Shown in pieces: positions 1 to 15,209 of a DNA stretch of 15,636 bases (within the stretch, counting starts at the first letter, position 1; each line of letters begins with the position of its first letter). Origin of the DNA: Candidatus Fraserbacteria bacterium (GTDB lineage: Bacteria > Bipolaricaulota > Bipolaricaulia > RBG-16-55-9); contig JBBIOR010000001.1 in assembly GCA_037443265.1 (NCBI GenBank), positions 69,529 through 85,164 on the forward strand, read 5' to 3'. A model generated the notes under the pieces. The model worked only from the letters and a program-made list of their open reading frames with translations, did no database searches and was not told the DNA's origin. A program made the translations under genes and the position numbers.

Positions 1-1276
1 CGGGAACTATAATGGCCCAGATTCCTTTACCTTCCGAGTCAATGATGGTTTGTTGAATAGCAACATCGCGACGGTGACGATCACTGTCACTCCCATCAAC
101 GATCCGCCGACTCTTACACCGATTCTCAGCCAGAGTGTGAACGAGGGTCAGACGCTTACACTACTCGTGAGCTGTACAGACATTGACGGCCCTAGCCTCA
201 CACTGATGGCCAGTAACTTGCCGCCAGGAGCGACCTTCGCCGACAACGGCGATGGCACGGGTACCCTGACTTATACGCCAGGATTTGACACCGTACAACA
301 TCCGGACGAACAGATCATCTTCAGCAACATCAGCCTCACTTGTATCGACGGCTCGGCCACCGACACCGACACCTTCAACCTCACCGTGTACGATGTGAAC
401 CGCCTGCCAGATGCTGTCAACGACAGCGCCACCACCAACGAAGACGCGCCCGTGACTGTAGCCGTGCTGGCCAACGACTCCGACCCCGATGGCGATACGC
501 TCACAGTGATCTCCTTCAGCCCAGTGGCCAACGGCACGGTCAGCTGCACGACCGCCGGCATGTGTACCTACACCCCGAGCGCCAACTTCAGCGGCACCGA
601 TACGTTCTCTTACACCGTCAGCGACAGCAGGGGCGGCACAGACACAGCTACCGTCACGATCACCGTCAATCCCATCAATGATCCGCCACAAGCCGATAAT
701 ATCTCCGTAACGACCCCTAAGAACACCCCCATCACCATCACCCTGCCGGTGCGCGATGACAACGGCGATCCACTCACCTGTAGTTTGATCTCGCCGCCGA
801 GTAACGGAACCGTCACCGTCAACGCCAACTGCACGGCCACTTATACCCCCAACTCCGACTTTGTAGGCACAGATCGCTTCGACTACCGCGTCTCCGACGG
901 CCAGCTCACCGATGAAGGCCACGTGGAGATCAGCGTCCTCGAAGATGCCAGCTGGGATAAGAGCAGCCTCACTTTCCTCAATGCCGGCAAGACCTGTGGG
1001 GACGAAAAGACCGTCTTCGCCACGGTGAAGAACGTCGGCAGCCCCATGCAGGGTCCTACCCGCTGGGAGCTCTATTTCAGTGCCAGCGGCGACCCGAAGA
1101 AGAACGGCGTGCTCGTCGCCTCCGGCGCCATCCCCGCTCTAGACAGCAACGAGACTTTCAAGATCTCTGTGAACGTCACCCAGAAGGGCAATTATAAATT
1201 CCGGGCCCTCCAGCGCCCCGGTCATCCCGGCAAGGGCGATCTGTGGTCTGATACCATCCGCTTCGACTGTAACTGA
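1..1276 (+). CDS. 5'-truncated surface protein with tandem Ig-like/cadherin-like (Big_9/'tandem-95'-type) repeats and a C-terminal TapA-like domain
   Basis: The frame is open from base 2 (GNYNGPDSFTFRVNDGLLNSNIATVTITV), so the TTG at 50 is not the true start. Repeats of about 95 aa begin at 98 (NDPP), 398 (NRLPDAVND) and 677 (NDPP), with LANDSDPDGD and YTPxxxFxGTDxFxYxVSD motifs. A distinct last domain spans 953-1273; TGA at 1274-1276. Confidence 0.9.
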   Translation, partial: GNYNGPDSFTFRVNDGLLNSNIATVTITVTPINDPPTLTPILSQSVNEGQTLTLLVSCTDIDGPSLTLMASNLPPGATFADNGDGTGTLTYTPGFDTVQHPDEQIIFSNISLTCIDGSATDTDTFNLTVYDVNRLPDAVNDSATTNEDAPVTVAVLANDSDPDGDTLTVISFSPVANGTVSCTTAGMCTYTPSANFSGTDTFSYTVSDSRGGTDTATVTITVNPINDPPQADNISVTTPKNTPITITLPVRDDNGDPLTCSLISPPSNGTVTVNANCTATYTPNSDFVGTDRFDYRVSDGQLTDEGHVEISVLEDASWDKSSLTFLNAGKTCGDEKTVFATVKNVGSPMQGPTRWELYFSASGDPKKNGVLVASGAIPALDSNETFKISVNVTQKGNYKFRALQRPGHPGKGDLWSDTIRFDCN

Positions 1277-1297
1277 GTATCTAAACAGCGCAGCTTC

Positions 1298-1317
1298 GCG
1301 GTAACCTCCATTACCGC
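1298..1317. other. Perfect inverted repeat GCGGTAA-CCTCCA-TTACCGC (RNA hairpin or operator)
   Basis: 7-bp arms and 6-nt loop, 21 nt after the stop of the repeat protein; no U-tract on either side. Confidence 0.5.
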
Positions 1318-1374
1318 CTGAGTCCGATCAGAAGCCTTACTATATTAGCCATCCACACACCGCGGAGGCTGGGT

Positions 1375-2688
1375 GTGAAGAGGCCATCTTTATTTTATCT
1401 GGCGCTGTTCACAATGGGTGTGCTTGGGCTCTGGCACGATATCGCTCTCTCCGACATCACCGGCAGCTTCGCCGCCAGCATTAGAGCCGACGCCATTCCC
1501 TGTGACCTGCTGGATGAACTCGGCTTTCCCAAGGTCTCCGATGAGCCCTGCGAGCAGACTCTGCTGCGCTTCGGCTTCGAGACGGATCTCAACATCACGG
1601 TGACGATCAGCGGGCTGACCACTAGCCTGCACAGCCACAGCGGCCTGACGGGTTTTGAAGACCTCATCCTGCGCCTTACGGCCACCTTGGGCGATCTGGA
1701 TATCCGCGATGAGTTCGTCTTTGGTCAAGCCTTCGGCCTCCTCCAGTCCCTCGACGGAAGACTCATCCCGGTCTGCTATGACGACGGCACCGGCAGCTGC
1801 CCGATCTTCTTCATCAAGAAACGAGTCCGACTCGATGTCACAGTGGTAGGGCTCACCTTCAGCAATCTGGCCCTCTTAGAAGATATTAATTTCCCCGACC
1901 CTGGAGCGCTCAAGCCCTCAGGAGCCCTCTATACGACCCAATCTCAGGCCTTTGGCTTCGGAGATATAGTCACGCTCGAGGGGCGCACGGACGCGGGGAC
2001 GACCCTGACCGCGCAGATTGGCCTCTGCGCCGAACAGCGGAGCAACAACGTCAAACAGCACTCCTTTTCATTCACGGTCAATCCCCATTGCCTAGAAGGC
2101 CCCGGCTCTTCCACACTCCTGCTCGACTTTGAGGATCTCTCGATCAGCAACATCGCCCTTACAGACAATATCGCCAGCGCCTTCAGCCTCAACTGTCTGC
2201 TCATTATCGCCTGCTCGTTCACCAACACCTTGACCCTGACCGGGGCACCTCTCTTTCCCGTGGTCACAGCATCTCTCACCGTGAACGATGTCTTGGGCAC
2301 TTTCGCCTTCCAAGGCGTGGTGCTCGTCTTGCAATCGGGCAATAATACCTTTGTGCTGAACATCGACTCGACGCTGGCCCTTACGTCCGTGAACGTCACT
2401 GGCAACCTGACGCTCAATCCCGACAGCAGCCCGGCCAGCGTAAATTATTCCATCAGCGGAGCGCCCGGAAGCGGACTGAGCAGCCTCATTCTCAATGTGA
2501 TCGTCCAGCGCTTCGGTGTACGATTCTCTGCCCTGGTGACCTACTTTGCCTCCGGGGGGAGTGCCACGTTCTCTAAGCTGACGCTGCGGGCGGCCACCAC
2601 GGTGGGCCTGATCAACTTGGAAGCCACCACAGGCTTTACTCTGGCCGCCCTCGCTGAGGCTGCCATAACAGCCTCGATGAGCTTTTAA
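1375..2688 (+). CDS. Exported beta-strand-rich hypothetical protein, candidate outer-membrane beta-barrel or envelope protein (437 aa)
   Basis: GGAGG at 1364-1368 before GTG. N-terminal signal peptide (MKRPSLFYLALFTMGVLGLWHDIALS). Many alternating hydrophobic/polar segments (LNITVTIS, VRLDVTV, VNVTGNLTLN, LTLRAATTV). C-terminus AAITASMSF. 8 Cys in four neighbouring pairs. Confidence 0.65.
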   Translation: MKRPSLFYLALFTMGVLGLWHDIALSDITGSFAASIRADAIPCDLLDELGFPKVSDEPCEQTLLRFGFETDLNITVTISGLTTSLHSHSGLTGFEDLILRLTATLGDLDIRDEFVFGQAFGLLQSLDGRLIPVCYDDGTGSCPIFFIKKRVRLDVTVVGLTFSNLALLEDINFPDPGALKPSGALYTTQSQAFGFGDIVTLEGRTDAGTTLTAQIGLCAEQRSNNVKQHSFSFTVNPHCLEGPGSSTLLLDFEDLSISNIALTDNIASAFSLNCLLIIACSFTNTLTLTGAPLFPVVTASLTVNDVLGTFAFQGVVLVLQSGNNTFVLNIDSTLALTSVNVTGNLTLNPDSSPASVNYSISGAPGSGLSSLILNVIVQRFGVRFSALVTYFASGGSATFSKLTLRAATTVGLINLEATTGFTLAALAEAAITASMSF

Positions 2689-3273: not shown

Positions 3274-4518
3274 CTACCCTGAGCGCATGCCCTCTTTGAC
3301 CTCGGAGACGGTGTACGGATCGGCCGCATCCCGCAGGGCATCGCCCATGAAGTTGAAAGCCAGCACGGAGATCACGATGAAGGCCGCGGGGATCAGAAGC
3401 CAGGCGTGGAATTGCATCTCGAAGGTGAAGCCTTTGCCCACGAAGCTGTTGAGCAGAAAGCCCCAGCTGGTCAGGGGATGCTGAATGCCATAGCCCAAGA
3501 AGCTCAAGATGCTCTCTAAGATGATGATGTCTGGGATGGCCAAGGTGGCCGCCACGATGAGATAGCTCATGATGTTGGGCATGATGTGGCGGAAGATGAT
3601 CCGGGTGTTGCTGGCCCCCAGAGCGCGGGCGGCCTGGGTATACTCGGCCTCCCGCAACGCCAAAAATTGCCCGCGGATCACCCGTGAAATGGGAGCCCAC
3701 GTGACGAGACTCAACAGTCCCACGATGCTCCAGAAGCGCATCATGGGCGGGATGTAGCCCATCTTAGTGAGGATCCCCGAGATGGCCAAAAGCAGGGCCA
3801 GCCGCGGCAAGGACATGAAGATCTCCGCGATCCGCTGGATGAGGGTGTCGACTCGGCCGCCGAGGTAGCCCGATAACCCGCCGATGAACGTCCCCAGCAG
3901 GAAGCTGATCAAAATCACCAGGGGGGCAATCGCTAGCGTGACGCGTCCGCCGAAGAGGATCATCGAGAAGAGATCATGCCCGTTCGCGTTCGTACCAAAC
4001 AGAAAGAGCTGCCCTGGAGAGTTCGGCGGCTCCCCGGTCCCAAATAGATGAATATCCGTGGGGATCAGACCGAAGAGCTGATAAGGCTCGCCACGTACCA
4101 GCAAGCGTATAGGATAGCGCTTCGAGGTGTCTTCAGTGTAATTATAGACGCCGGGCAGAGGGTATCTCTTACCCTGATAATCGACGAAGACGGGGTTCTG
4201 CACCAAGCCGTAGACGTACGGCTGGAGGCCGTCGAAGTGGATGCGGGTGATCATCGGCGGCACATAGGGGAATGGCGGATGAGATTGGCGGAAGTTATAG
4301 GGGCTGATGAACTCGGCGAATAGAAAGACCAAGACCAGCCCGGCCACGATGATGGCGCCGATCAATCCCAAGCGATGGCGGGTAAATCTCCGCCAGATGA
4401 GCCGGCCCTGAGAGAGCGGAGCTGTGCCAAACTCCCAAGACGGCTCCCGAGCGCGCGGCTTCTCCACCGTAGCCGCCGAACCCTCTACTGTGAATCTGCC
4501 CACCTTCTCGTCAGTCAT
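3274..4518 (-). CDS. oppC: Opp/Dpp-family ABC transporter permease, OppC/DppC-like (414 aa)
   Basis: N-terminal IWRRFTRHRLG motif, FLFGTNANGHDLFS, EAA loop EYTQAARALGASNTRIIFRHIMPN, C-terminal FNFMGDALRDAADP. Its ATG overlaps the oppB stop (ATGACTGA). Confidence 0.93.
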   Translation of the reverse strand: MTDEKVGRFTVEGSAATVEKPRAREPSWEFGTAPLSQGRLIWRRFTRHRLGLIGAIIVAGLVLVFLFAEFISPYNFRQSHPPFPYVPPMITRIHFDGLQPYVYGLVQNPVFVDYQGKRYPLPGVYNYTEDTSKRYPIRLLVRGEPYQLFGLIPTDIHLFGTGEPPNSPGQLFLFGTNANGHDLFSMILFGGRVTLAIAPLVILISFLLGTFIGGLSGYLGGRVDTLIQRIAEIFMSLPRLALLLAISGILTKMGYIPPMMRFWSIVGLLSLVTWAPISRVIRGQFLALREAEYTQAARALGASNTRIIFRHIMPNIMSYLIVAATLAIPDIIILESILSFLGYGIQHPLTSWGFLLNSFVGKGFTFEMQFHAWLLIPAAFIVISVLAFNFMGDALRDAADPYTVSEVKEGMRSG

Positions 4519-5506
4519 AGCGGATCTTGGGATCGGCCAGGGCCAACAAGATATCCGAGATCAAGTTCCCAATCATCAGAATTAGGCTGAAGACGAAGAG
4601 GGCACTCATCACCACAGGGTTATCACGGTTCTCAATCGACTCGATGAACGTCTTCTCAATCTGGGGCAGATTGAACACGATGGCAATAACCAGCGCCCCT
4701 TCGAGCATATAGGGGATCCAGAAGCCGAGCATGCTGATGAGGGGATTGATGGCATTGCGCACGGCGTGCTTGTAGATGACGACCCGCTCGAGGAGCCCCT
4801 TGGCCCGGGCCGTCTGAATGTAGTCCATCTTGAGCACATCGAGCAGACTGCCGCGCATGTAGCGGATCACGGCTGCGGTGTTGGCTGCCGCCAAGATAAA
4901 GACGGGCGGGAGAAAATGCCACAGGAAGTTGAGCATCCCCATCAGGCTCCAGGGGTCCTTGCAATAATCCCCGTTGCAGAAGCCGCCCACCCCAAAGAAG
5001 GGGTTCATATTCCCCAGATTCAACAGCCCGACCACAATCCATATGAACAGCAACGCCAAGATGAAGTTGGGAATGGAAAGTCCCAGAAAGCCCAAGAAGG
5101 TGAACATATGATCCGCAGGGGAATACTTATGAGTTGCGGAATAGATGCCAATGGGTATGGCAACCGCCCAGCTGAGCACCAAGGCCGAAAGAACCAGTAG
5201 CAGCGTGTATACCCAACGGTTCTCTCCGACCAGCGCCTGCCAGGCCGGCATGGAGCGATTGGGCGACCAGCCGAAGTCTAGACAACAGGCCACCCCTTTC
5301 ACCCAGTTGAAGTATTGAAGGTAGAAGGGCTGGTTGAGGCCGTAAATCTCACGGAGCTTTGCGCGTAGCTCTTGAGGGCAGCTTAACCCGCAGAGCTTGT
5401 CCACGGCATCTCCTGGCTGCAGGTACATCAGAAGGAAGATGACGAAGGTCACAACGATCAGGAGCGGAATCATATAGAAGATCCTCCGCGCGATAAATCC
5501 GATCAT
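4511..5506 (-). CDS. oppB: Opp/Dpp-family ABC transporter permease, OppB/DppB-like (331 aa)
   Basis: FIARRIFYMIP start, YGLNQPFYLQY, DFGWS, EAA loop DYIQTARAKGL...KHAVRNA, end DILLALADPKIRYD. RBS AAAGGAGGT upstream. Confidence 0.93.
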   Translation of the reverse strand: MIGFIARRIFYMIPLLIVVTFVIFLLMYLQPGDAVDKLCGLSCPQELRAKLREIYGLNQPFYLQYFNWVKGVACCLDFGWSPNRSMPAWQALVGENRWVYTLLLVLSALVLSWAVAIPIGIYSATHKYSPADHMFTFLGFLGLSIPNFILALLFIWIVVGLLNLGNMNPFFGVGGFCNGDYCKDPWSLMGMLNFLWHFLPPVFILAAANTAAVIRYMRGSLLDVLKMDYIQTARAKGLLERVVIYKHAVRNAINPLISMLGFWIPYMLEGALVIAIVFNLPQIEKTFIESIENRDNPVVMSALFVFSLILMIGNLISDILLALADPKIRYD

Positions 5507-5548
5507 CCGCCGTGACCTCCTTTAAATTTCCGTATCATAGCCGCTGCT

Positions 5549-5578
5549 ATTATAAAACGCAAGCCTGCGGCTCTGACA
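5549..5578 (-). promoter_or_regulatory. Promoter-like motif TGTCAG-N18-TATAAT, copy 2 (internal promoter for the permeases)
   Basis: The minus strand reads cTGTCAG agccgcaggcttgcgttt TATAATag, directly downstream of the SBP terminator and upstream of the oppB RBS. Confidence 0.7.
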
Positions 5579-5586
5579 GCCAACCC

Positions 5587-5640
5587 AACAAAGAAAGAGG
5601 GGCACGAGGGTTTCTAAGCCCCGTGCCCCCTCCTTTTCTC
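5587..5640 (-). terminator. Intrinsic terminator after the SBP gene, possibly bidirectional
   Basis: Arms GAGGGGCACG (5597-5606) and CGTGCCCCCTC (5622-5632). The minus-strand tail is TTTCTTTGTT; the plus-strand tail is CTTTTCTCT. Confidence 0.75.
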
Positions 5641-5672
5641 TGTCAGCGGTCAGCTGAGCGCTGATGCTGATA
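5641..5672. other. Imperfect TCAGC/GCTGA stem-loop immediately after the SBP stop codon
   Basis: TGTCAGC-GG-TCAGC-TGAGC-GCTGA-T-GCTGATA; possibly a 3' stabilising hairpin. Confidence 0.45.
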
Positions 5673-5674
5673 GG

Positions 5675-7732
5675 CTATCGTGGACAAGCTGCCTGGCCCG
5701 GCAGGTCTACTCTGAACTTTCTGTCCGTGTTGGCGTTGACCGCCCGGCCATCGTTGCAGATCCTGTCCGTGCGCACCGCGAAGAGTTGGTTCCCAGCGGC
5801 TAGGTGGTAGTAGGGCACGAACTGCATCCAGACCGCCTGGAACTGGTCGAAGCCCGCTTGAGCGCCCGGGACATCGGTGGCTTGGAAGCCCTGCTGCCAC
5901 GGAGCTTCGATCGCCTGCTCCTCGGGCGTCGGGGCCGCCGGATCGCCCGCGGGGGCGTTGGGGTCACACGCGACGTGGTAGAGGTGCAGCGCCGTGCCGC
6001 AGGGTACCACGTTGACCGCGCCTGCCGGATCACCACCCGTCAGCCCGATGGTGATGTAGCCGGTGAAGGTCCCCTCCAAGAGCTGGCTGACCAGGGTGGG
6101 GAACGAGGTGGTGGTAGCCGAGCATTGCACGCCGATGGCATTCCAGCCGTCGCAGATGATCACGCCAAAGGCCTCGCGGATCGTGTTGCCCGTGTTGGTG
6201 ACCACCTGTACGACAAAGTCCTTCCCGCCGGGGTTCTTCACGACCCCGTTGGGATCAAGATTGGCCGGGATGTTGCGGATCCCGTTCCCATCGGTATCGA
6301 CCACGCCTACGGAGTCGAGCAGCTGCTTAGCTTGCTCCAAGCAGGCGGCGAAATTGTCCAAGCAGCTTAGAGCCTGCACGATGTCGGCGTTCACGGGGGC
6401 CGGCAGGTTCTTCACGTTGATCTTCAGGCCGTTGGAGAGGCTCCAGACGTCGCCGCTGCAAGTGGCTGCCGTGGCCAGACCGGCCTGGATGAAGGTGTTA
6501 CAGTCGTTGGTGCGGCCGCTGAAGAAGTTCGATTGATTGATGGAGACCGGGTTGAATTGCGGGGTTCCAATTCCCAAGAGCACGTTCTGGACCATGGTCG
6601 CCCGGTCGATGGCCAGATAGAGCGCTTTGCGCACTTTGGAGTTGCGAGCGGCCGCGGCCAGATCAGGGTCGGGATCGCTGAAGTTGGGCGTGGTGAAGGT
6701 CTCGCCGGCAGCGGGCACGCCATTGTCGATGTCCGTGTTCACGTCAAAGCCGCCTTGGGCCGCACGGGAGAGGATCACCGCGATGTCCTCGGGGCGCGGG
6801 CCGTAGATATCCGTCTGCCCGTTGAGGAACTGGCTCAGGGCCAGATTGAGCCCGGCCGTGGGGATGATGATGATCTGGACGCCGTCCAGATAGGGCAGCT
6901 GGACCCCATTGCTGTCGACTTCATAGAAGAAGGGATTGCGCTGGTAACTGGCCTGCTGATCCGAGGCGAAGCTGGTCATCTTGAAGGGTCCCAGGCCGCG
7001 CAGGAGGTTGATCGGTGCCCCCAGCCCCATGAACTCCTGGGCCGGAATAGGCCCAAACTGGTTCTCTCCGGCCACGGGGACGTTCTGTTCCGCGATGAGA
7101 TCCAGGGCCATCTGCTTGGAGAGCACCAGCTGACCGGCCGCAAACGGCACAAAGGTGCGGAAGGGTTCCGGGCAGCTGATCTGGATCTGGTTGGGCGCGG
7201 GCGAGGTCACCTTAAAGGGCGAGCCGTCCGTGCAACGGAAGGCGTCCTGGAAGGAGTTGGGCAGGTTCTCGTTGAACACGACGTTGTTGTACCAATAGAG
7301 GACGTCATCCACGGTGACCGGCGAGCCGTCTGAATATTGTAGCCCCTGGCGCAGCGTCGCAGTGACCACGGTGCCTGCTTCATTCACCTCGATGAGAGAG
7401 GCGGCATTGCCCTCACCCGCGTCCGTGCCCAGCAGGGAGTAGGACGCAAAGAACGTGCCCAAGAACTGATCTTGGATGGAGAGCGAGGCGGTGTCCTCAG
7501 CCGTGACCGGGTTGAGCGTCGAAGGAGAAGCAATAATGGAGAAGGCCGTCGTTCCTCCCTTGACTTTAGCGCAAGTGGTGCCAGCAGGGCCCTCGGGGTT
7601 CTGGGGCCGCAGCTCGCTACAGTTCAGGACCACTAGGGGCTGGGCTGGCGGCTGGGCCAGCGTCACCACACTGGCTCCACCCATCACAGCCAAAGCCACA
7701 ACTACCATCAACAAGGAACGTATAAACTTCAC
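5675..7732 (-). CDS. Family-5 (OppA/DppA/NikA-like) ABC substrate-binding protein (685 aa), SPase I-type signal peptide
   Basis: AAAGGAGGT before GTG. Motifs PSTLNP, TLRQGLQYSDGSPVTVDDV, GLGPFKM, RNPFFYEVDSNGVQLPYLD, VRKALYLAIDRATMV. No lipobox Cys; 14 Cys in the mature part. Confidence 0.9.
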   Translation of the reverse strand: MKFIRSLLMVVVALAVMGGASVVTLAQPPAQPLVVLNCSELRPQNPEGPAGTTCAKVKGGTTAFSIIASPSTLNPVTAEDTASLSIQDQFLGTFFASYSLLGTDAGEGNAASLIEVNEAGTVVTATLRQGLQYSDGSPVTVDDVLYWYNNVVFNENLPNSFQDAFRCTDGSPFKVTSPAPNQIQISCPEPFRTFVPFAAGQLVLSKQMALDLIAEQNVPVAGENQFGPIPAQEFMGLGAPINLLRGLGPFKMTSFASDQQASYQRNPFFYEVDSNGVQLPYLDGVQIIIIPTAGLNLALSQFLNGQTDIYGPRPEDIAVILSRAAQGGFDVNTDIDNGVPAAGETFTTPNFSDPDPDLAAAARNSKVRKALYLAIDRATMVQNVLLGIGTPQFNPVSINQSNFFSGRTNDCNTFIQAGLATAATCSGDVWSLSNGLKINVKNLPAPVNADIVQALSCLDNFAACLEQAKQLLDSVGVVDTDGNGIRNIPANLDPNGVVKNPGGKDFVVQVVTNTGNTIREAFGVIICDGWNAIGVQCSATTTSFPTLVSQLLEGTFTGYITIGLTGGDPAGAVNVVPCGTALHLYHVACDPNAPAGDPAAPTPEEQAIEAPWQQGFQATDVPGAQAGFDQFQAVWMQFVPYYHLAAGNQLFAVRTDRICNDGRAVNANTDRKFRVDLPGQAACPR

Positions 7733-8211: not shown

Positions 8212-9420
8212 ATGCGACGGAAGGTGGTTGGACTGATAGGGCTTACCTTGGTGATCAGTTCTTTGATGTTTCTGTCGGGGGCGGCACAAGCGAACGTAGT
8301 TAAGGCGCTGCAGAATCCCTGTAGCGAATTCGATCCTAACGTGCGCAGCGCGGCTTCGGATGTCCGCTCCGCCCAGCTGATCGGATCACTGGATGTGAAG
8401 ACTTTGCGGGGCTTTGCTAAGGACGGGGCCAATGTCGAGTGCCGCCGTACCGGGCTCGATGCGCTGACCTCAGCCCTCTTCGAGTCCTCAAGAGGACTGG
8501 ACTTCGCCGGGCTGGGGGCACCAGTTGGGGGGCGCACGGCCCAAGCGTATCACGATTTTGCCGCCGGGACAGCGAGTCCTGAGCTGGGGTATGCCATCGC
8601 TCGGGCCGTCGTGCGCCAGGTGCGCAGTGGCTTTGCGATTGTGCCCGGTGGGGCTGCCGAAGCCTTCAACCGCATCCAGACCTGCTTGGACGGCAAGATC
8701 GTGACCAATCAGGGCAACCGCGTGGCCGGGGTGGCCCTCAACTGCGGCAGCGAGGTGATCCGCCGGGCCGTGGCCGATGAGATCGCCAAGGGGTTCTATC
8801 TGCAATTTGGCTCGCTGCCGGCCGTCAACTTCGGCTGCAATGAAATGCTCAATCAGGCCACAAGCGGCAAGACGGTCGAGGCCCGCTGGGCCGCTGCTCA
8901 GGCCTACGTCGAAGGCTGTGCGCCCAATTTGGCCGATCTGGCCCAAAACGGCGCTACTCGGGAGTTGAGATTCGCGGCGGTAGCCTCTCTGGCCACTCAG
9001 CTGGCCCGCACGGCAGGCGCCAGTGCGGCCAAATTATTAGGCGATGCGGTGAAGGCCCACAATGCTGGCACCGGCGAGCTCAGTCTGGCCAACGCGTGGG
9101 CCGCCGGCCTGCTGTTGGAGAAAGAAGTGAGCGCGGACCCGAAAAACTGCGCGCCTGTCACCACCAAGACGGCCCTGCCCTTACCTCCCACAGGCACGAG
9201 CACGACCCAGGAGCTACTCAAGTTCTCCTTAAGCTGGGCCTTCTTCTCGCCCGTCGGTGCCGCCGCCATCGCCCCCTTGGCCCGCTACAATGTCTCTAAA
9301 GTCGGCTTCAGCGGGCCCGAATGCCAGCTCCAAGCCAGCGCGGAAAAGCTCCGCCTGACGATTGCCCAGCAGGTGCCGGGGGCCAAGCTTCCGCTCCTAA
9401 GCAACGTGACGACGCTGTAA
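8212..9420 (+). CDS. Secreted Ala-rich hypothetical protein with degenerate HEAT/PBS-lyase-like helical repeats (402 aa)
   Basis: RBS AAAGGAGGT at 8195-8203. Signal peptide ending AQA. Recurrent units DPNVRSAAS, SPELGYAIA, SEVIRRAVA, TVEARWAAA, TRELRFAAV, TGELSLANA. 8 Cys. Confidence 0.7.
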   Translation: MRRKVVGLIGLTLVISSLMFLSGAAQANVVKALQNPCSEFDPNVRSAASDVRSAQLIGSLDVKTLRGFAKDGANVECRRTGLDALTSALFESSRGLDFAGLGAPVGGRTAQAYHDFAAGTASPELGYAIARAVVRQVRSGFAIVPGGAAEAFNRIQTCLDGKIVTNQGNRVAGVALNCGSEVIRRAVADEIAKGFYLQFGSLPAVNFGCNEMLNQATSGKTVEARWAAAQAYVEGCAPNLADLAQNGATRELRFAAVASLATQLARTAGASAAKLLGDAVKAHNAGTGELSLANAWAAGLLLEKEVSADPKNCAPVTTKTALPLPPTGTSTTQELLKFSLSWAFFSPVGAAAIAPLARYNVSKVGFSGPECQLQASAEKLRLTIAQQVPGAKLPLLSNVTTL

Positions 9421-9441: not shown

Positions 9442-9499
9442 GACCGGCCGGCTCCTCAGCCGCAGTCAGTGAGTGCATAGCCGGCCGGTCTTCATTTTT
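9442..9499 (+). terminator. Probable intrinsic terminator with a large loop
   Basis: 12-bp perfect arms GACCGGCCGGCT (9442-9453) and AGCCGGCCGGTC (9479-9490), 25-nt loop, followed by TTCATTTTT. Confidence 0.65.
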
Positions 9500-9508
9500 C
9501 ATCGGCCC

Positions 9509-9538
9509 TGTCAGCAGCCGTCTCCTCTCGTGTATAAT
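9509..9538 (+). promoter_or_regulatory. Promoter-like motif TGTCAG-N18-TATAAT, copy 4
   Basis: cTGTCAG cagccgtctcctctcgtg TATAATac, just after the terminator and 45 nt before the ATG at 9584. Confidence 0.7.
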
Positions 9539-9583
9539 ACTGAATCGGACTTTGGGCCTAAAGAACACGGGAGGGAGCGGCAG

Positions 9584-12301
9584 ATGCCTATGAAACACCA
9601 CCGCCAAAGAATCCTTTGGGGGGTGGGAGCGGTCGCCTTAGTGGCTGTGGCTTTGTGGTCCGGAGCTACGCTGCTGGAACGAGGCAGCCGGTTGCCTACC
9701 GATACGGTGCTTTTGGTAAATGGAGAGCCGGTTGGCCAATCGGCTCTGGATGCAGCCTTTTGGGATCTCTTGCAGGCCTACCGGAAGATCTATGTGCAAG
9801 GTGGCGGCGACTTCGAGGAGTTGATCAGCGGTCCGGCGGGCGCGTATTATCAACTCCAGGTCAGATATCAAGCCGCGCAACAGCTCATCGACCAAGCTCT
9901 GATCCGTCAAGAGGCCCGGCGGCGAGGTCTATGGCCCCTCTCTCAAGATCTAGTGGAAAGCACCTTTCAGGAGCGCTATCAGAAGTTTCTCGAGGGTAAC
10001 GGCATGACGGAAGCGGATCTTTTAGCCCTCTTCCAAGACCCTGAGAAGAAGCGCTGGACCCAAAGGCTCCTGGGCCTGCGAGACGAGAGCGTTGAGGCCC
10101 TTAAGACGCGCCTGCGCCGCGAGGTCGAGCGGGATCTCAGCCACACGGCCCTCGCCCAAGCACTGCTCGGTCCGGACATCTCCCCCAGTTCGGACGAGGG
10201 CCAAGAACGCCTCCAGCAATGGCTGGCTGAACGCCGCGAAGGGAGCCAGATCGTCTACGTCGAGCCGCTGCTGAGAGCCCATCACCTGGAGAAGCGCGTC
10301 GAGCAAGGCCAGACCCTAGAAGAGCGCTTGCGCTCTCTCGACGAGGCCATTGCCGCCTATGAAGAGATCCAGAAGAAGGGGCTCTCCTCCGACCCGAATC
10401 TCTCATATTATCTGGCCCAGCTTTACAATCTCAAAGTCAATTGGAGCTTGGAGCAAGAGCGGCAGCTGGAGGAAGAAGCGTCGGCAAACCCCAAGAACTC
10501 CGAGAAGATCACCCAGCTGCGGCAAGAGATCGCGCGCAATCGGGAGAAGGCCACCCAATTCTTCCTCTCCGCCAGCGACAGCGCCCTGGAGAACGAGCGC
10601 CAGCTCCAGACGCTGCTCATGGCCGACGCCGCCAATCCTTTCTATTATTATCTGTACGCACGCTTTCTCATGACTCAAGGCCAAGAGATCGAACTGGTTC
10701 GGGCGCTGCGCCTGCTCAAGAGGGCCATCGAACTGGACCCCGAATACGCCGATGCCTACACCCTGCTGGGGGATCTCGATATGACCCGCGAGCACTTCCA
10801 GGAGGCCATCTATTACTACAACCAAGCTCTGCCTCTAGCCCGCAAGCTGCTTTCGAGCGACCAGCAGCTCAAAGCCCGGGAGAGTCGACCGCCAGTCGTT
10901 CAGAGGAAGCTGGCGGAAGCCTACCTCGGCCTGGCCCGCCAGCTGGAGCCATCGGCCCAGCCTGACTCCCAAAAGAGGCGCAACGAGGCCCTCTCTCAAG
11001 CGAGCCGGCTGCTCCAGGAGTTACTAGATCAGATCAGCCCTCAAGATCCAGACTATCCCATCCTCCTAGCCGATCTGGGCGATCTAGAGATGCGGCAGGG
11101 CCGGTACCAGGCCGCCCAGGCCCGTTATCTCCAATCCTTGGAGGCAAAGGAAGACCCCCAGGTACAAGTCAAGCTGGGTCAGGCCTACCGGCAAGCGGGG
11201 CAGCTTCCAGAGGCCCAGCAGGTCTTCCAGAGTGTGCTCAGTAGCCATCCGAACTGGGCTCCGGCCCGCCGAGGCCTGGCCGAGATCTACCGGGACAGCG
11301 GCGACCCCAAGAAGGCCATGGCGGAATACAAAGAGGCCTTCCAGGACGCAGAGGCGCTCGATTATCGCGAGAGGCGCCAGATCGCCCTGGACGCGCTCGC
11401 GCTCGATCCCCACGACGTCGAGATGATCCTCCTGCTGGCCGACTTCTACCGGGAGCGGTACGTGCTGGAAGGGGCCCTCGAGCAGTATCAGGCCGCCCTC
11501 AAGCTCGACCCAACTTCTATAAGGGCCTATGTGGGCTTGGGGAGAGTCTTCCTGGCCCGCTATCAATACGCCGAGGCCCTGAAGTATTTCCAGAAGGCCC
11601 TAGAGCAGAAGCCCTCTCCTGAGGAGCAGCTCGATATTTACTATTCCATCTGGAAGGCCGAACAGGGGGCAGCCGGTCCGGGTCGCCCCGTGGGCGAAGC
11701 GGGCCAGAACGCCCTCTGGCAGCTGGCCCAGCTCTATGTGCAAGCCGGCCGGCTCCCCGAGAGCCGCTGGGTGCTTAAGGAGCTTAAGCAGCGCTACCCG
11801 GCGTATCGCACTGAGGAGGTGGCCCAACTGGAGCGGCAGCTCCTCCGCCTGCTCGGCGATGATCTGCCCGGAAGGGCGCTGCCCGACCAGGGGCATCAGA
11901 TCATCGCGCCCGGGCAGCCACACCCGCCCTACAACTCGACCCCTCCCACCTCCGGCTGGCACTACGCCATCCCCGCGGAGTGGGGCCTCCATGACACCCC
12001 GATTCCCGACGAGGTCCAGCTGCGCAACCTGGCCGCCGGCGGGGTGCTCATCCAGTATCCACCTACCCTCGCCCCAGAGATCCTGGAGACATTGCGAAAC
12101 TTCGTGATCGATCTGCGCAAAGATCCCAAATACTGCCGGCTGATCTTAGCGCCCTATGCCGCCTTGGATCACGCCCTCGTGCTCAGCGCCTGGAATCGCC
12201 TGGATGAGCTGGAGAACTTCGATAAGGAGCGCATCATGCGCTTTATCGAGGCCTTCATCGGCCGGGGCCCTGAGGTGAGGGAAGTAAGCTGCCCACGCTG
12301 A
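9584..12301 (+). CDS. Membrane-anchored SurA/PrsA N-terminal-like domain + TPR repeats + C-terminal DUF3105-like domain (about 905 aa)
   Basis: GGGAGGGAG before ATG 9584 (alternative ATG at 9590). TM segment ILWGVGAVALVAVALW. SurA_N-like VNGEPV...QLIDQALIRQEARRRGL. Many TPR motifs (LKRAIELDPEYADAYTLLG; YQAALKLDPTSIRAYVGLG). DUF3105-like YNSTPPTSGWHY...WG...LILAPY...LSAW. Confidence 0.85.
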   Translation: MPMKHHRQRILWGVGAVALVAVALWSGATLLERGSRLPTDTVLLVNGEPVGQSALDAAFWDLLQAYRKIYVQGGGDFEELISGPAGAYYQLQVRYQAAQQLIDQALIRQEARRRGLWPLSQDLVESTFQERYQKFLEGNGMTEADLLALFQDPEKKRWTQRLLGLRDESVEALKTRLRREVERDLSHTALAQALLGPDISPSSDEGQERLQQWLAERREGSQIVYVEPLLRAHHLEKRVEQGQTLEERLRSLDEAIAAYEEIQKKGLSSDPNLSYYLAQLYNLKVNWSLEQERQLEEEASANPKNSEKITQLRQEIARNREKATQFFLSASDSALENERQLQTLLMADAANPFYYYLYARFLMTQGQEIELVRALRLLKRAIELDPEYADAYTLLGDLDMTREHFQEAIYYYNQALPLARKLLSSDQQLKARESRPPVVQRKLAEAYLGLARQLEPSAQPDSQKRRNEALSQASRLLQELLDQISPQDPDYPILLADLGDLEMRQGRYQAAQARYLQSLEAKEDPQVQVKLGQAYRQAGQLPEAQQVFQSVLSSHPNWAPARRGLAEIYRDSGDPKKAMAEYKEAFQDAEALDYRERRQIALDALALDPHDVEMILLLADFYRERYVLEGALEQYQAALKLDPTSIRAYVGLGRVFLARYQYAEALKYFQKALEQKPSPEEQLDIYYSIWKAEQGAAGPGRPVGEAGQNALWQLAQLYVQAGRLPESRWVLKELKQRYPAYRTEEVAQLERQLLRLLGDDLPGRALPDQGHQIIAPGQPHPPYNSTPPTSGWHYAIPAEWGLHDTPIPDEVQLRNLAAGGVLIQYPPTLAPEILETLRNFVIDLRKDPKYCRLILAPYAALDHALVLSAWNRLDELENFDKERIMRFIEAFIGRGPEVREVSCPR

Positions 12302-13060: not shown

Positions 13061-14221
13061 TTACCCGCGCCCCTGGGAATAGGGGTCGACCGCATCGCGC
13101 AACGCATCGCCCATGAAATTGAACGCCAGCACGGAGACAATGATAAAGAATCCTGGGATGAGCAGCCACCAGTGCTTGGAGAGGGCAAAGATGTTGTTGG
13201 CCGCGTTCAGCAGCAGCCCCCAGCTGGTGGCTGGCTCATGAATCCCCAAGCCCAAGAAGCTTAAGCCCGCCTCGGCCAGGATCAGCCCAGGGATGGTGAG
13301 CGTAGAGGCCACGATCAGATAGCTCATGGTATTGGGCAGGAGGTGGCGGAAGATGATGCGTCCGCTGCTGGCTCCCATCGCCCGGGCCGCCAGGACGTAC
13401 TCTTGTTCTCGCAGGGCGAGAAACTGCCCGCGCAGCACGCGGGCGATGCCCGTCCAGCCGGTCACAGACAGGATGAGCACGATCCCCAAAAAGCGCATCT
13501 CCTCCGAAATGCCCCGGGGCAGAATGGTGGCCAGCACCAGAAGCAGGGGCAAGACGGGATAGGACTGCAGCACCTCGATGATGCGCTGAATGGCCAGATC
13601 CACCCAGCCGCCCCAGTACCCCGAGAGCCCTCCGAAGAGAATCCCCAAAAACAGAATTAACACGAGCGAGAGCGGCCCCACCGCCAGCGAGACTCGCCCT
13701 CCCATAAGCGTGCGCGTGAAGAGATCCCGCCCGAAGCGGTCCGCGCCAAACAGAAAGATCTGGCCGGGGGAATCCGGCGGCTCGCCCGTCCCAAAGAGAT
13801 GAATCTCCGTGGGAAAGAGCCCTAAGAATCTATAGGGATCTCCCCGCACGAAGAAGCGAATGGGATAGATGCGACTCCTCTCTTCCTGGAAGATCGGCTC
13901 GCCAGTCTCCGGATCGAAGCGGCGAAGGGTGCCGTAGACGAACGGCCCGACAAAGCGCCCCTCATGGAAGAGATGAATCGGCGTCGGGGGTGCAAACCCC
14001 AGCTGCGGATGGAACTGATCTGCACGATACGGTCCGATGAAATCCGCGAAGATCGTTACAAACGCCAAGAGCAGGATGAGGAGGCTGCCCAGCACGCCCA
14101 GCCGATGGCGCTTGAAGCGGCGCCAGATGAGCTGGCCGGGCGCAAGCAGCGGCTTCTCGCCGATCTCAGGCTCAACTGGAGTTCGGCGCGGCTTCCGCTC
14201 CGCCAGGACCCGTTCAGTCAT
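13061..14221 (-). CDS. oppC: Opp/Dpp-family ABC permease, OppC/DppC-like, second copy (386 aa)
   Basis: IWRRFKRHRLG, FLFGADRFGRDLFTR, EYVLAARAMGASSGRIIFRHLLPN, FNFMGDALRDAVDP. ATGACTGA overlap with the oppB stop. Confidence 0.93.
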   Translation of the reverse strand: MTERVLAERKPRRTPVEPEIGEKPLLAPGQLIWRRFKRHRLGVLGSLLILLLAFVTIFADFIGPYRADQFHPQLGFAPPTPIHLFHEGRFVGPFVYGTLRRFDPETGEPIFQEERSRIYPIRFFVRGDPYRFLGLFPTEIHLFGTGEPPDSPGQIFLFGADRFGRDLFTRTLMGGRVSLAVGPLSLVLILFLGILFGGLSGYWGGWVDLAIQRIIEVLQSYPVLPLLLVLATILPRGISEEMRFLGIVLILSVTGWTGIARVLRGQFLALREQEYVLAARAMGASSGRIIFRHLLPNTMSYLIVASTLTIPGLILAEAGLSFLGLGIHEPATSWGLLLNAANNIFALSKHWWLLIPGFFIIVSVLAFNFMGDALRDAVDPYSQGRG

Positions 14222-15209
14222 AGCGCACCCTGGGATCTACCCAGGCTAAAAGGATATCCGCGATGAGATTGCCCACGAGCAAAAAGAGCGCGAAGAACGT
14301 GAGTGCCGTCACCACCACATACTCATCCGGGGGCTGGAGCGACTGGAAATAAAAGATCTCCAGATTGGGCATGTTGAGCACTTGAGCCGCCAAGAGAGAG
14401 CCGGTGACGAAATTCGGCAGCGACTGGCCGAAGATGGAGATCATCGGGTTGATGGCATTGCGCACCGCGTGCTTGTAGATGACCACCCGCTCGGCCAAGC
14501 CCTTAGCCCGCGCAGTCTGGACGTAGTTGGAGCCCAGGATGTCGAGGAGCTGGCCCCGCATCACGCGCATCAACCCCGCAATGCCCGAGGCCCCAATTAC
14601 GAGCACCGCCGGCCAAAGATGCGCCAAATAATCGAAAAACTTGGCCCAGCTCCAGTGCCACGGCCAAGGAGACCCCGCAATATACTGCTGTGAGAAGATC
14701 CCTCCCACCGCCGGATACCCCAGGTTCGTCAGCACGAAAAGGAGCACCAGCGCGCTGAAGAACGTCGGGATGGAGAGCCCAATGAAGCCTAGGAGCGTCA
14801 AGCTATGATCGCCGATCGAGTATTGATGCGTAGCCGAATAGATTCCCAAAGGGATGGCCACCAGCCACACGAACACAAACGTGGGGAGGGTGATCAGCAG
14901 CGTGATCGGCAGATACTGCAGGATGAGATCGCCCACCGGCTGACGCTTCTCGAAGGAATAGCCGAAGTCCCAACGCGTGACGATTCCCTCCAGCCATTTG
15001 AGATAGCGCACGTACCAGGGCTGATCAAGCCCCAAGTTCTTGGCGTAGCGTTCGATCGTCTCCGGGCTGACGCGCGGGTTGAGCTTGAGCTGCGACACGA
15101 AGTCTCCGTTGAAGTACTCTTGCAGCGCGATGATGGCGAAGCTCACCAGCGAAACCAGAACGAGCGTGGGGATGATCAGCAAGATCCTACGGATGATGTA
15201 ACTCAGCAC
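14214..15209 (-). CDS. oppB: Opp/Dpp-family ABC permease, OppB/DppB-like, second copy (331 aa)
   Basis: YIIRRILLIIPT, LGLDQPWYVRY, DFGYS, YVQTARAKGLAERVVIYKHAVRNA, DPRVRYD. AAAGGAG before GTG. Confidence 0.93.
   Translation of the reverse strand: MLSYIIRRILLIIPTLVLVSLVSFAIIALQEYFNGDFVSQLKLNPRVSPETIERYAKNLGLDQPWYVRYLKWLEGIVTRWDFGYSFEKRQPVGDLILQYLPITLLITLPTFVFVWLVAIPLGIYSATHQYSIGDHSLTLLGFIGLSIPTFFSALVLLFVLTNLGYPAVGGIFSQQYIAGSPWPWHWSWAKFFDYLAHLWPAVLVIGASGIAGLMRVMRGQLLDILGSNYVQTARAKGLAERVVIYKHAVRNAINPMISIFGQSLPNFVTGSLLAAQVLNMPNLEIFYFQSLQPPDEYVVVTALTFFALFLLVGNLIADILLAWVDPRVRYD

Follow-up and report, generated by a model that had tools for sequence, protein, structure and literature searches.

A TapA core closing a giant repeat adhesin in a Bipolaricaulota bacterium without a detectable TasA system

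According to our analysis, the 15,636-nucleotide stretch of Candidatus Fraserbacteria bacterium (phylum Bipolaricaulota) studied here, hereafter the window (contig JBBIOR010000001.1 of assembly GCA_037443265.1, positions 69,529 to 85,164), begins within a gene for a giant fibrillar adhesin whose last 107 residues are a true homologue of the folded, immunoglobulin (Ig)-like core of TapA, as supported by a curated profile, by sequence matches in the PDB and by a fold model. What is new is that a TapA core independent of the TasA system here closes a giant adhesin, in a diderm lacking lipopolysaccharide (LPS). A preliminary description of the window, made from the letters alone, had read these residues as a TapA-like domain closing a long repeat protein and had proposed for it either a tip position or the role of an anchor for a TasA-like fibre; the reading of the domain stands, whereas the fibre role found no support in our searches.

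The NCBIfam equivalog model TIGR04087 (YqxM_for_SipW/TapA), described as "amyloid fiber anchoring/assembly protein TapA", scores 83.0 bits on the 107-amino-acid (aa) domain (E 2e-23), above its curated cut-off of 80, with 83.4 bits on the 424-aa fragment encoded in the window and 86.9 bits in a six-frame search of the genome; residues 1-107 of the domain align to model positions 66-182 of 186, and among 14 control genomes only that of B. subtilis is matched. The best PDB chains by sequence are the TapA cores 8aif_A (E 8.4e-5) and 6hqc_A (E 2.2e-4). The motif-by-motif correspondence with B. subtilis TapA given in the preliminary description is reproduced in the alignment to these two chains, and the residues read in frame 2..1276 as they had been quoted. 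An AlphaFold2 model of the domain, built from a 21-row alignment, has a mean pLDDT of 90.1, and when it was searched against the PDB with Foldseek, 8aif_B, 8aif_C, 8aif_A and 6hqc came out on top (E 1.6e-5 to 4e-5, TMq 0.74-0.77), with 6qay, also TapA, at a TM score of 0.72. The domain is 22-25% identical to B. subtilis TapA and 40-57% identical to named Bacillaceae TapA proteins, and 23 columns are invariant across 21 aligned sequences.

In B. subtilis TapA the Ig fold is reported to span K72-D189, with a C92-C188 disulfide and an N-terminal W74 that packs on the β8-β9 loop (PMC10151520). The domain studied here begins with a Trp equivalent to this structural W74. Its Cys15 aligns with the sole N-terminal Cys of the 6hqc chain, taken as C92, and its Cys106 lies 2 residues beyond the end of the PDB alignment, in a column that is Cys in at least 90% of the 21 sequences; judged from the alignment, the two residues stand at the places of the B. 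subtilis Cys92-Cys188 pair and would form a putative disulfide. Pfam has no dedicated model for the 107 residues, the sole match being CARDB (PF07705) with 16.2 bits (E 0.012) against a cut-off of 22.7, and the CARDB structure 3IDU ranks fifth among the fold matches with a TM score of 0.56. A generic CARDB label, which had been named as the competing assignment, was rejected, since it stays below threshold by sequence and below the 0.72-0.77 of the TapA structures by fold; CARDB shares with the domain the broad Ig-like sandwich class.

The open reading frame (ORF) that carries the domain occupies positions 2..1276 of the forward strand, and ends with a TGA stop. Its 5' end is open only on account of a scaffold gap of 100 N (contig C1 69429-69528) that reaches up to the first base of the window. 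We recovered the N-terminal part before the gap as a 787-residue open frame (C1 67066-69428) consisting of a hydrophobic signal peptide ending in ...GSSA/QQ, a non-repeat head of about 290 aa and five Big_9/cadherin units. Big_9 scores 286.9 bits over five stretches in this part and 197.9 bits over four stretches in the window part, which also matches Cadherin_5, Cadherin_4 and CshA_repeat (27 bits), and the tandem-95 repeat model NF012211 reaches 190 bits on the window part against a cut-off of 90, as befits a repeat adhesin. Both sides of the gap belong to one gene, since head, repeats and TapA-like end follow one another in the same way in gap-free relatives of 967-1,466 aa (P0003, P0004, P0005, P0032 and the L011 ORF). 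The product is thus a Sec-exported giant fibrillar adhesin of more than about 1,160 aa, in which a signal peptide and a GEVED-like head are followed by at least nine Big_9/cadherin-type repeats and by the TapA core, so that the domain does end a long repeat protein as had been proposed. We found no transmembrane helix, lipobox or LPXTG motif in the adhesin and no sortase in its genome, which is 88% complete; therefore, one of the two terminal knobs must hold the adhesin if it stays on the cell.

A search of the 35 genomes of the order matched the head 25 times, in 13 genomes and in frames as long as 5,183 aa. The C-termini of these paralogues vary, some ending in plain repeat, others in DUF11-like units and one (G093:C30) in a hydrophobic helix with a basic tail behind it. 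The sole Pfam match of the head is GEVED (PF20009), which remains sub-threshold at 17.6 bits against a cut-off of 24.4 (E 0.0069, model positions 1-76 of 78), and in a protein atlas the head falls among GEVED/CshA adhesin clusters (0.86), which we take as a lead only.

TapA's own N-terminal segment, already noted as lacking, is indeed absent: TIGR04087 positions 1-65 are unmatched by the domain, and running the alignment into the preceding repeat, to model position 40, adds only 0.4 bits. The donor-strand segment of TapA has been placed at residues 44-57, TapA75-190 alone giving negligible TasA oligomers (PMC10151520), and the first 57 TapA residues were reported to suffice for the biofilm architecture of B. 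subtilis (10.1101/794164). Peptidase_M73 (TasA, PF12389) has no match among the ORFs of the window or in its genome, where the SipW-cognate signal peptide model TIGR04088 has none either and the archaeal/SipW-type signal peptidase model TIGR02228 reaches at best 19 bits against a cut-off of 51.85. The earlier remark that neither sipW nor tasA lies downstream therefore holds for the window and extends to the whole genome and to the four other genomes of the phylum that carry the domain. PF12389 matches one of 184 phylum genomes (G121), and the SipW-type peptidase exceeds its cut-off in the same single genome, which is none of the five carriers. These searches apply to carrier genomes that are 86-94% complete and to a TasA model that is blind to very divergent TasA-like pilins, the archaeal ones having been described as detectable only by profile-profile methods (PMC9245690). 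Within this scope, the TapA core is uncoupled from the TasA system in this clade. Since the donor strand, the SipW-type signal and any detectable TasA or SipW are absent, the domain cannot act as TapA does in Bacillus, and since no TasA fibre system was detected, it must have a job of its own here. The pair found in G121 (G121:C181:372-2478; L091, L092), the only TasA plus SipW pair among the 184 genomes, lies on a short contig and may be a binning contaminant or a recent transfer.

The GC content is 58.6%, and the host genome contains an Omp85/BamA gene (77.6 bits), a diderm marker that bears out the diderm look remarked on earlier, and LpxC was not found in it. Both results are consistent with an LPS-less diderm envelope, such as the simple one that Hao et al. 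inferred for Acetothermia (PMC6092417). TIGR04087 occurs in 5 of the 184 species genomes of the phylum, at six loci and always within long open frames, namely in the window's own genome (G000), in G100 with two copies, in G104 and G105 of the same family and in G097 of a second family, so that each carrier encodes one or two domain proteins. In four of the six copies 0-5 residues follow the domain. The G105:C24 adhesin (L099) and the protein P0110 extend instead beyond the TapA core by an Asp/His tail of 42-47 aa (GLCGQDDDH...HDGDEP), which may bind metal. The presence of the domain in only 5 of 184 phylum genomes, together with its identity of up to 57% to Bacillota proteins, suggests that the module was acquired horizontally. 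In a domain tree of 83 rows and 110 columns, from which rows L007, L010, L098 and L101 were left out as duplicates of L012, L100, L011 and L013, 35 of the 79 inner branches are left open and the window falls within none of the starred sets; the window groups with three Bipolaricaulota-type rows (SH-aLRT 86-91) plus a distrusted long-branch Bacillus row (L039), and neither donor nor direction of transfer can be read from its 110 columns.

Beyond the phylum, a word-indexed search for longer proteins returned 29 matches, comprising the adhesin itself, three close fused relatives (79-80% identity) and 25 others of 230-373 aa and 40-57% identity, most of them named TapA and two being TasA-TapA-core fusions (P0006, P0008). 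In a profile search of 1.84 billion cluster representatives, 663 clusters matched at E<=1e-3, with 469 of them at 1e-10 or better and 71 at 1e-30 or better; among the best 150 of these 663, 23 are at least 600 aa long and 18 at least 800 aa, the 18 being unannotated surface proteins from several phyla. The novelty that had been attached to the fusion, on the ground that TapA is normally a stand-alone protein, is weakened by these 18 multidomain surface proteins, and the TapA core studied here is one example of an unannotated, widely shuffled module. Pfam analysis of 24 longer proteins from the best 150 showed surface architectures with DUF11, DUF7507, SdrD_B, SpaA, Big_9/cadherin, PKD and VWA-type domains, the TapA core having an N-terminal, central or C-terminal position. 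Four of the clusters scanned (P0004, P0162, P0110 and P0169) pair Big_9 repeats with a core that reaches the C-terminus or stops at most 45 residues short of it. P0162 is the G100:C17 copy, named by NCBI only as "tandem-95 repeat protein", whereas P0169 matches the adhesin of the window with 57% identity in the head and 46% in the core and differs in the stalk; the pairing of head and core is old enough to have reached a divergence of 46% identity there.

A scan of one genome per species gave 90 loci, of which 80 were kept. Beside Bacilli, these lie in genomes labelled Clostridia, Anaerolineae, Patescibacteria, Saccharibacteria and a few others, among which the labels Hadarchaeota, Bathyarchaeia, Pseudomonadales and Gammaproteobacteria of metagenome-assembled genomes (MAGs) are distrusted; two loci with such labels share the sortase plus CAP or VanZ neighbourhood of the Patescibacteria loci and may be mis-binned. 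Around 16 non-Bacillaceae loci no match to Peptidase_M73 was found among 81 ORFs at E<=1e-5, and in 4 of the 16 a sortase gene adjoins the TapA-core gene. In the Clostridia loci L014, L023 and L031 the TapA-core protein carries a C-terminal LPKTG-type signal, so the TapA core belongs to sortase-anchored surface proteins in some lineages, and in Anaerolineae proteins it is the sole recognisable, Pfam-free globular part of a membrane-tethered chain. A local TasA profile gave TasA-like matches in 48 of the 80 loci and in none of L011-L013, and serves as a rough pointer only, because it drifted into TapA ORFs, with which the N-terminal signal and donor region are shared. The TapA-core proteins beside sortase genes lie at L014 5455-8112, L048 5881-8435, L051 4048-9417 and L079 1967-3606, and the contigs of L048 and L079, labelled Pseudomonadales and Bathyarchaeia, look mis-binned. 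Fusions of TasA (Peptidase_M73) with a C-terminal TapA core, of about 310-380 aa, were seen in P0006/P0033-P0035 (Schinkia azotoformans, L015 5257-6315), P0008 and L016, and probably also in L038, L045 and L081; they are annotated only as "TasA family protein". P0037, a 1,086-aa protein from an Anaerolineae MAG, joins sigma-70 r2/r4, HisKA/HATPase and FecR with two terminal TapA cores in one frame, and represents either a fusion created by gene calling or an anti-sigma-like sensor whose TapA cores are extracellular. The literature that we covered, which leaves out subscription journals, held no description of TapA-core/repeat-adhesin fusions, the archaeal AbpB being the sole relevant TapA-like case.

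The domain shares with the B. subtilis TapA core (about residues 72-189; PDB 8AIF, 6HQC, 6QAY) the V-set Ig-like sandwich, the order of motifs, the starting Trp and the places of the Cys residues. Unlike B. subtilis TapA, it lacks the SipW-type signal, the donor-strand segment 44-57 and the disordered C-terminal tail, and it stands at the C-terminus of a protein longer than 1,160 aa from another phylum without tapA-sipW-tasA. Its nearest named sequences are the TapA proteins and TasA-TapA fusions of Bacillaceae, such as P0006 of S. azotoformans (314 aa, 57% over the domain), with which it has the motifs WDKSSL, GNPK and YKF(R/K)A.QRPGHPGKG.LWS in common and, in the case of the fusions, also the C-terminal place of the core; these proteins differ in having a SipW-cognate signal, Peptidase_M73 or a TapA N-terminus, and TasA-like gene neighbours. 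The long Big_9/cadherin/CshA-type stalk behind a non-repeat N-terminal head is as in CshA-type and tandem-95 fibrillar adhesins with GEVED, but here GEVED is sub-threshold, LPXTG and sortase are missing, and the protein ends in a TapA core, with which those families are not annotated. Archaeal AbpB (Pcal_0909, of bundling pili) likewise joins a TapA-like sandwich to β-rich domains outside Bacillota, but it was reported as recognisable by structure only, with the TapA-like domain proximal to the signal peptide and the gene beside that of the TasA-like pilin AbpA (PMC9245690). The domain studied here, by contrast, is strongly matched by its sequence and lies at the C-terminus, and a pilin gene was not found.

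The gene that follows the adhesin encodes P0173, for which Pfam offers no family and in which no POTRA or Omp85 signature was found. Its AlphaFold2 model, from an 11-row alignment, has a pLDDT of 82 and a pTM of 0.70 and forms a meander of 26 strand elements; the Foldseek matches listed for it are all outer-membrane barrels (the FimD usher first, then porins and TonB-dependent receptors), at low TM scores of 0.19-0.51. On the basis of its signal peptide, all-β meander, C-terminal aromatic residue and fold matches, P0173 is a predicted outer-membrane β-barrel of an undescribed, phylum-specific family. Between the two genes no terminator-like or sigma-70 promoter-like site was seen on the forward strand, which constitutes weak evidence, drawn from the letters of the spacer, that they may be co-transcribed. 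A barrel homologue lies directly downstream of the TapA-core adhesin in four of the six loci, namely in G000, in G104, in G105 with two in tandem, and in G097, where a PKD domain is added; the last belongs to another family of the order and keeps the adjacency though its further neighbours are unlike those of G000 and G104. In two further genomes, G098 and G099, the contig breaks off before the end of an adhesin that bears the head, and a barrel gene is found about 2 kb upstream of this adhesin. Further paralogues, such as G000:C7:959-2191 and G100:C14:10323-13087, end in F or Y and have no Pfam or NCBI name, and the family is probably the major porin or outer-membrane protein family of the lineage.

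As to what the core does in this adhesin, the reading that we tentatively favour, and to which we would give a little less than an even chance, is that of a TasA-independent binding or holdfast module with the C-terminal core on the cell side, possibly together with the barrel, and the head outward. The TapA core would be an autonomous, putatively disulfide-stabilised binding module shuffled among surface proteins of many phyla, because it keeps 40-57% identity across phyla and 23 invariant columns and is in some Anaerolineae proteins the only recognisable globular part. In the adhesin it would make a second terminal knob opposite the head and would serve as a holdfast keeping the stalk on the envelope of an LPS-less diderm, perhaps with the help of the outer-membrane barrel encoded 98 bp downstream, leaving the conserved N-terminal head as the outward binding end. 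A cell-side place is favoured by the G093:C30 paralogue, in which the same head is combined with a hydrophobic helix and basic tail at the other end, by one Anaerolineae protein with the core directly before a C-terminal membrane anchor, by P0169, which keeps head and C-terminal core though its stalk differs, by the barrel gene directly downstream in four of six loci, including one in a different family of the order with other further neighbours, and by the report that TapA is cell-associated (PMC10151520). Several points weigh against it. The LPKTG-bearing Clostridia proteins have their core near the N-terminus, far from the anchor, and the core is therefore not always cell-proximal; to our knowledge, no ligand has been described for any TapA core. 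In G100 neither of the two TapA-core adhesins has a barrel directly beside it, the barrel family is multi-copy (78 of 184 genomes, all 35 of the order, up to nine or more copies), and none of ten other barrel paralogues, at eight loci inspected, adjoins an adhesin; the role of the barrel as a dedicated partner is weakened by these multi-copy and mostly stand-alone paralogues, and its adjacency to the adhesin may be inherited synteny. The core was also reported to be dispensable for colony architecture in B. subtilis (10.1101/794164), and divergent TasA-like pilins could have escaped PF12389 in a genome that is not fully recovered. A complex prediction of the barrel with the TapA core gave a score of 0.01 (mark 0.32) and counts neither for nor against. 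A bolder form, in which the core plugs into or under a dedicated, phylum-specific barrel of about two dozen strands, the pair being a two-gene display system for giant adhesins on an LPS-less outer membrane and the core a widespread envelope-docking module whose role is masked in Bacillus by the N-terminal chaperone strand, appears to us improbable.

The main rival inverts the orientation. When a conserved N-terminal domain and a dedicated barrel occur side by side, as in two-partner secretion, the head may equally well be the end for secretion or anchoring, in which case the TapA core would be the distal tip. The outer membrane would then export or retain the head, perhaps by means of the barrel, and the core would be the outward, ligand-binding tip, as in the tip position proposed in the preliminary description; we consider this unlikely, though the most probable of the rivals. 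In TpsA and RTX adhesins a conserved N-terminus serves export or retention, and a head that is constant across paralogues while the C-termini vary follows their pattern. In the Clostridia proteins and in Anaerolineae proteins the core lies far from the C-terminal anchor, and a place at the fibre tip has been proposed for archaeal AbpB (PMC9245690). Yet neither POTRA nor an Omp85 signature was seen in the barrel (no Pfam match), no barrel was found next to the more distant same-head paralogues, one paralogue is anchored by a C-terminal helix, and the atlas lead puts the head with CshA/GEVED adhesins, where the non-repeat N-terminus is the adhesive end. Rather improbable, in our view, is a passive cap, that is, a very stable disulfide-locked Ig module that ends and protects the repeat stalk and binds nothing specific. 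The lack of a known ligand would suit it, as would the complete and unusually stable Ig fold of TapA (Tm 60-64 °C) and the structural role there of the N-terminal Trp and of the β8-β9 loop (PMC10151520), which together hold many of the invariant residues here, but the conservation of the 107-aa extracellular Ig domain across phyla is far above that of usual spacer domains, Anaerolineae proteins show the core as their sole recognisable globular part, and related same-head adhesins manage without a cap. An export or sorting signal, resembling the C-terminal domain (CTD) of the type IX secretion system (T9SS) and targeting the adhesin to the neighbouring barrel for translocation across the outer membrane, would agree with the size and fold class of a sorting CTD, with the extreme C-terminal place of most clade copies and with the adjoining barrel gene. 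It has little to recommend it here, and is unlikely as a general sorting signal, given that one or two domain proteins per genome face up to nine or more barrels, that an NCBIfam scan of the 107 residues at E<=1 gave TIGR04087 only and no sorting-domain model (T9SS Por_Secre_tail and similar), that the same domain is N-terminal or internal in other phyla, and that an acidic/His tail of 42-47 aa follows it in G105 and P0110. The anchor or nucleator of a TasA-like donor-strand fibre outside Bacillales, as suggested in the preliminary description, is what we hold least probable of all. It would fit the role of TapA in B. subtilis, the existence of TasA-TapA-core fusions (Schinkia P0006), the escape of very divergent TasA-like pilins from PF12389 (PMC9245690) and a cluster of small secreted proteins about 6-12 kb upstream; against it, the nucleating residues 44-57, without which TapA75-190 forms negligible oligomers (PMC10151520), are absent, no SipW or TasA homologue and no SipW-type signal was found in the genome, nor TasA or the SipW-type peptidase in the four other carriers, which argues against a fibre role, and the upstream small proteins resemble WxL or SCPU clusters, not TasA (a lead only).

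Why a conserved TapA core exists was left open by the authors who found the first 57 residues to suffice (10.1101/794164). The core occurs in genomes labelled Bacillota, Chloroflexota, Patescibacteria, Bipolaricaulota and others, often without TasA or SipW nearby, and the Bipolaricaulota adhesin is the cleanest natural uncoupling, with a core that lacks the donor strand in five genomes without detected TasA or SipW, which gives a direct handle on the core's own function. The first closed genome of the phylum was, according to its report, without adhesin genes (PMC6092417); the lineage now has a giant adhesin family, publicly annotated only as "tandem-95 repeat protein", and a probably major outer-membrane barrel family without a Pfam name. 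Table 1 lists the features of the adhesin and barrel genes.

Table 1. Features of the adhesin gene and of the barrel gene behind it (positions in the window)
Feature	Position	Strand	Basis or remark
Repeat stalk, C-terminal stretch (Big_9/cadherin-like/tandem-95)	2..952	+	Pfam, NCBIfam; gene continues upstream past the gap to C1 67066-69428
TapA-core domain, V-set Ig-like β-sandwich, 107 aa, last in the protein	953..1273	+	TIGR04087, PDB sequence matches, AlphaFold2/Foldseek
Adhesin stop codon TGA	1274..1276	+	
98-bp spacer between adhesin and barrel gene; GGAGG shortly before the GTG start	1277..1374	+	
Predicted outer-membrane β-barrel protein P0173, 437 aa, signal peptide, ends in ...SMSF	1375..2688	+	

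The remainder of the window contains, on the reverse strand, two sets of Opp-type ABC permease pairs (3274-7732 and 13061-15209), the first with a 685-aa family-5 solute-binding protein; the order of adhesin, barrel and Opp genes is syntenic with the "Fraserbacteria" locus L011. Between these sets, on the forward strand, lie a 402-aa ORF without a Pfam family (8212-9420) and a 942-aa protein that starts with a SurA-like domain, contains many TPR units and has DUF3105 at its C-terminus (9473-12301). The upstream cluster of secreted proteins (G000:C1:54353-61243; L104 354-7244) includes a 917-aa protein with an Ig/NEW3-like N-terminus, a long middle part without assignment, and SdrD_B and PKD at its end, a 255-aa NEW3/FixG_C-like protein, two further secreted ORFs without a family, and two secreted paralogues of about 180 aa that end in ...YTVTD(T/L)TP, for which the atlas leads point to WxL or SCPU clusters. 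This cluster could be a fimbria-like or surface-layer assembly locus.

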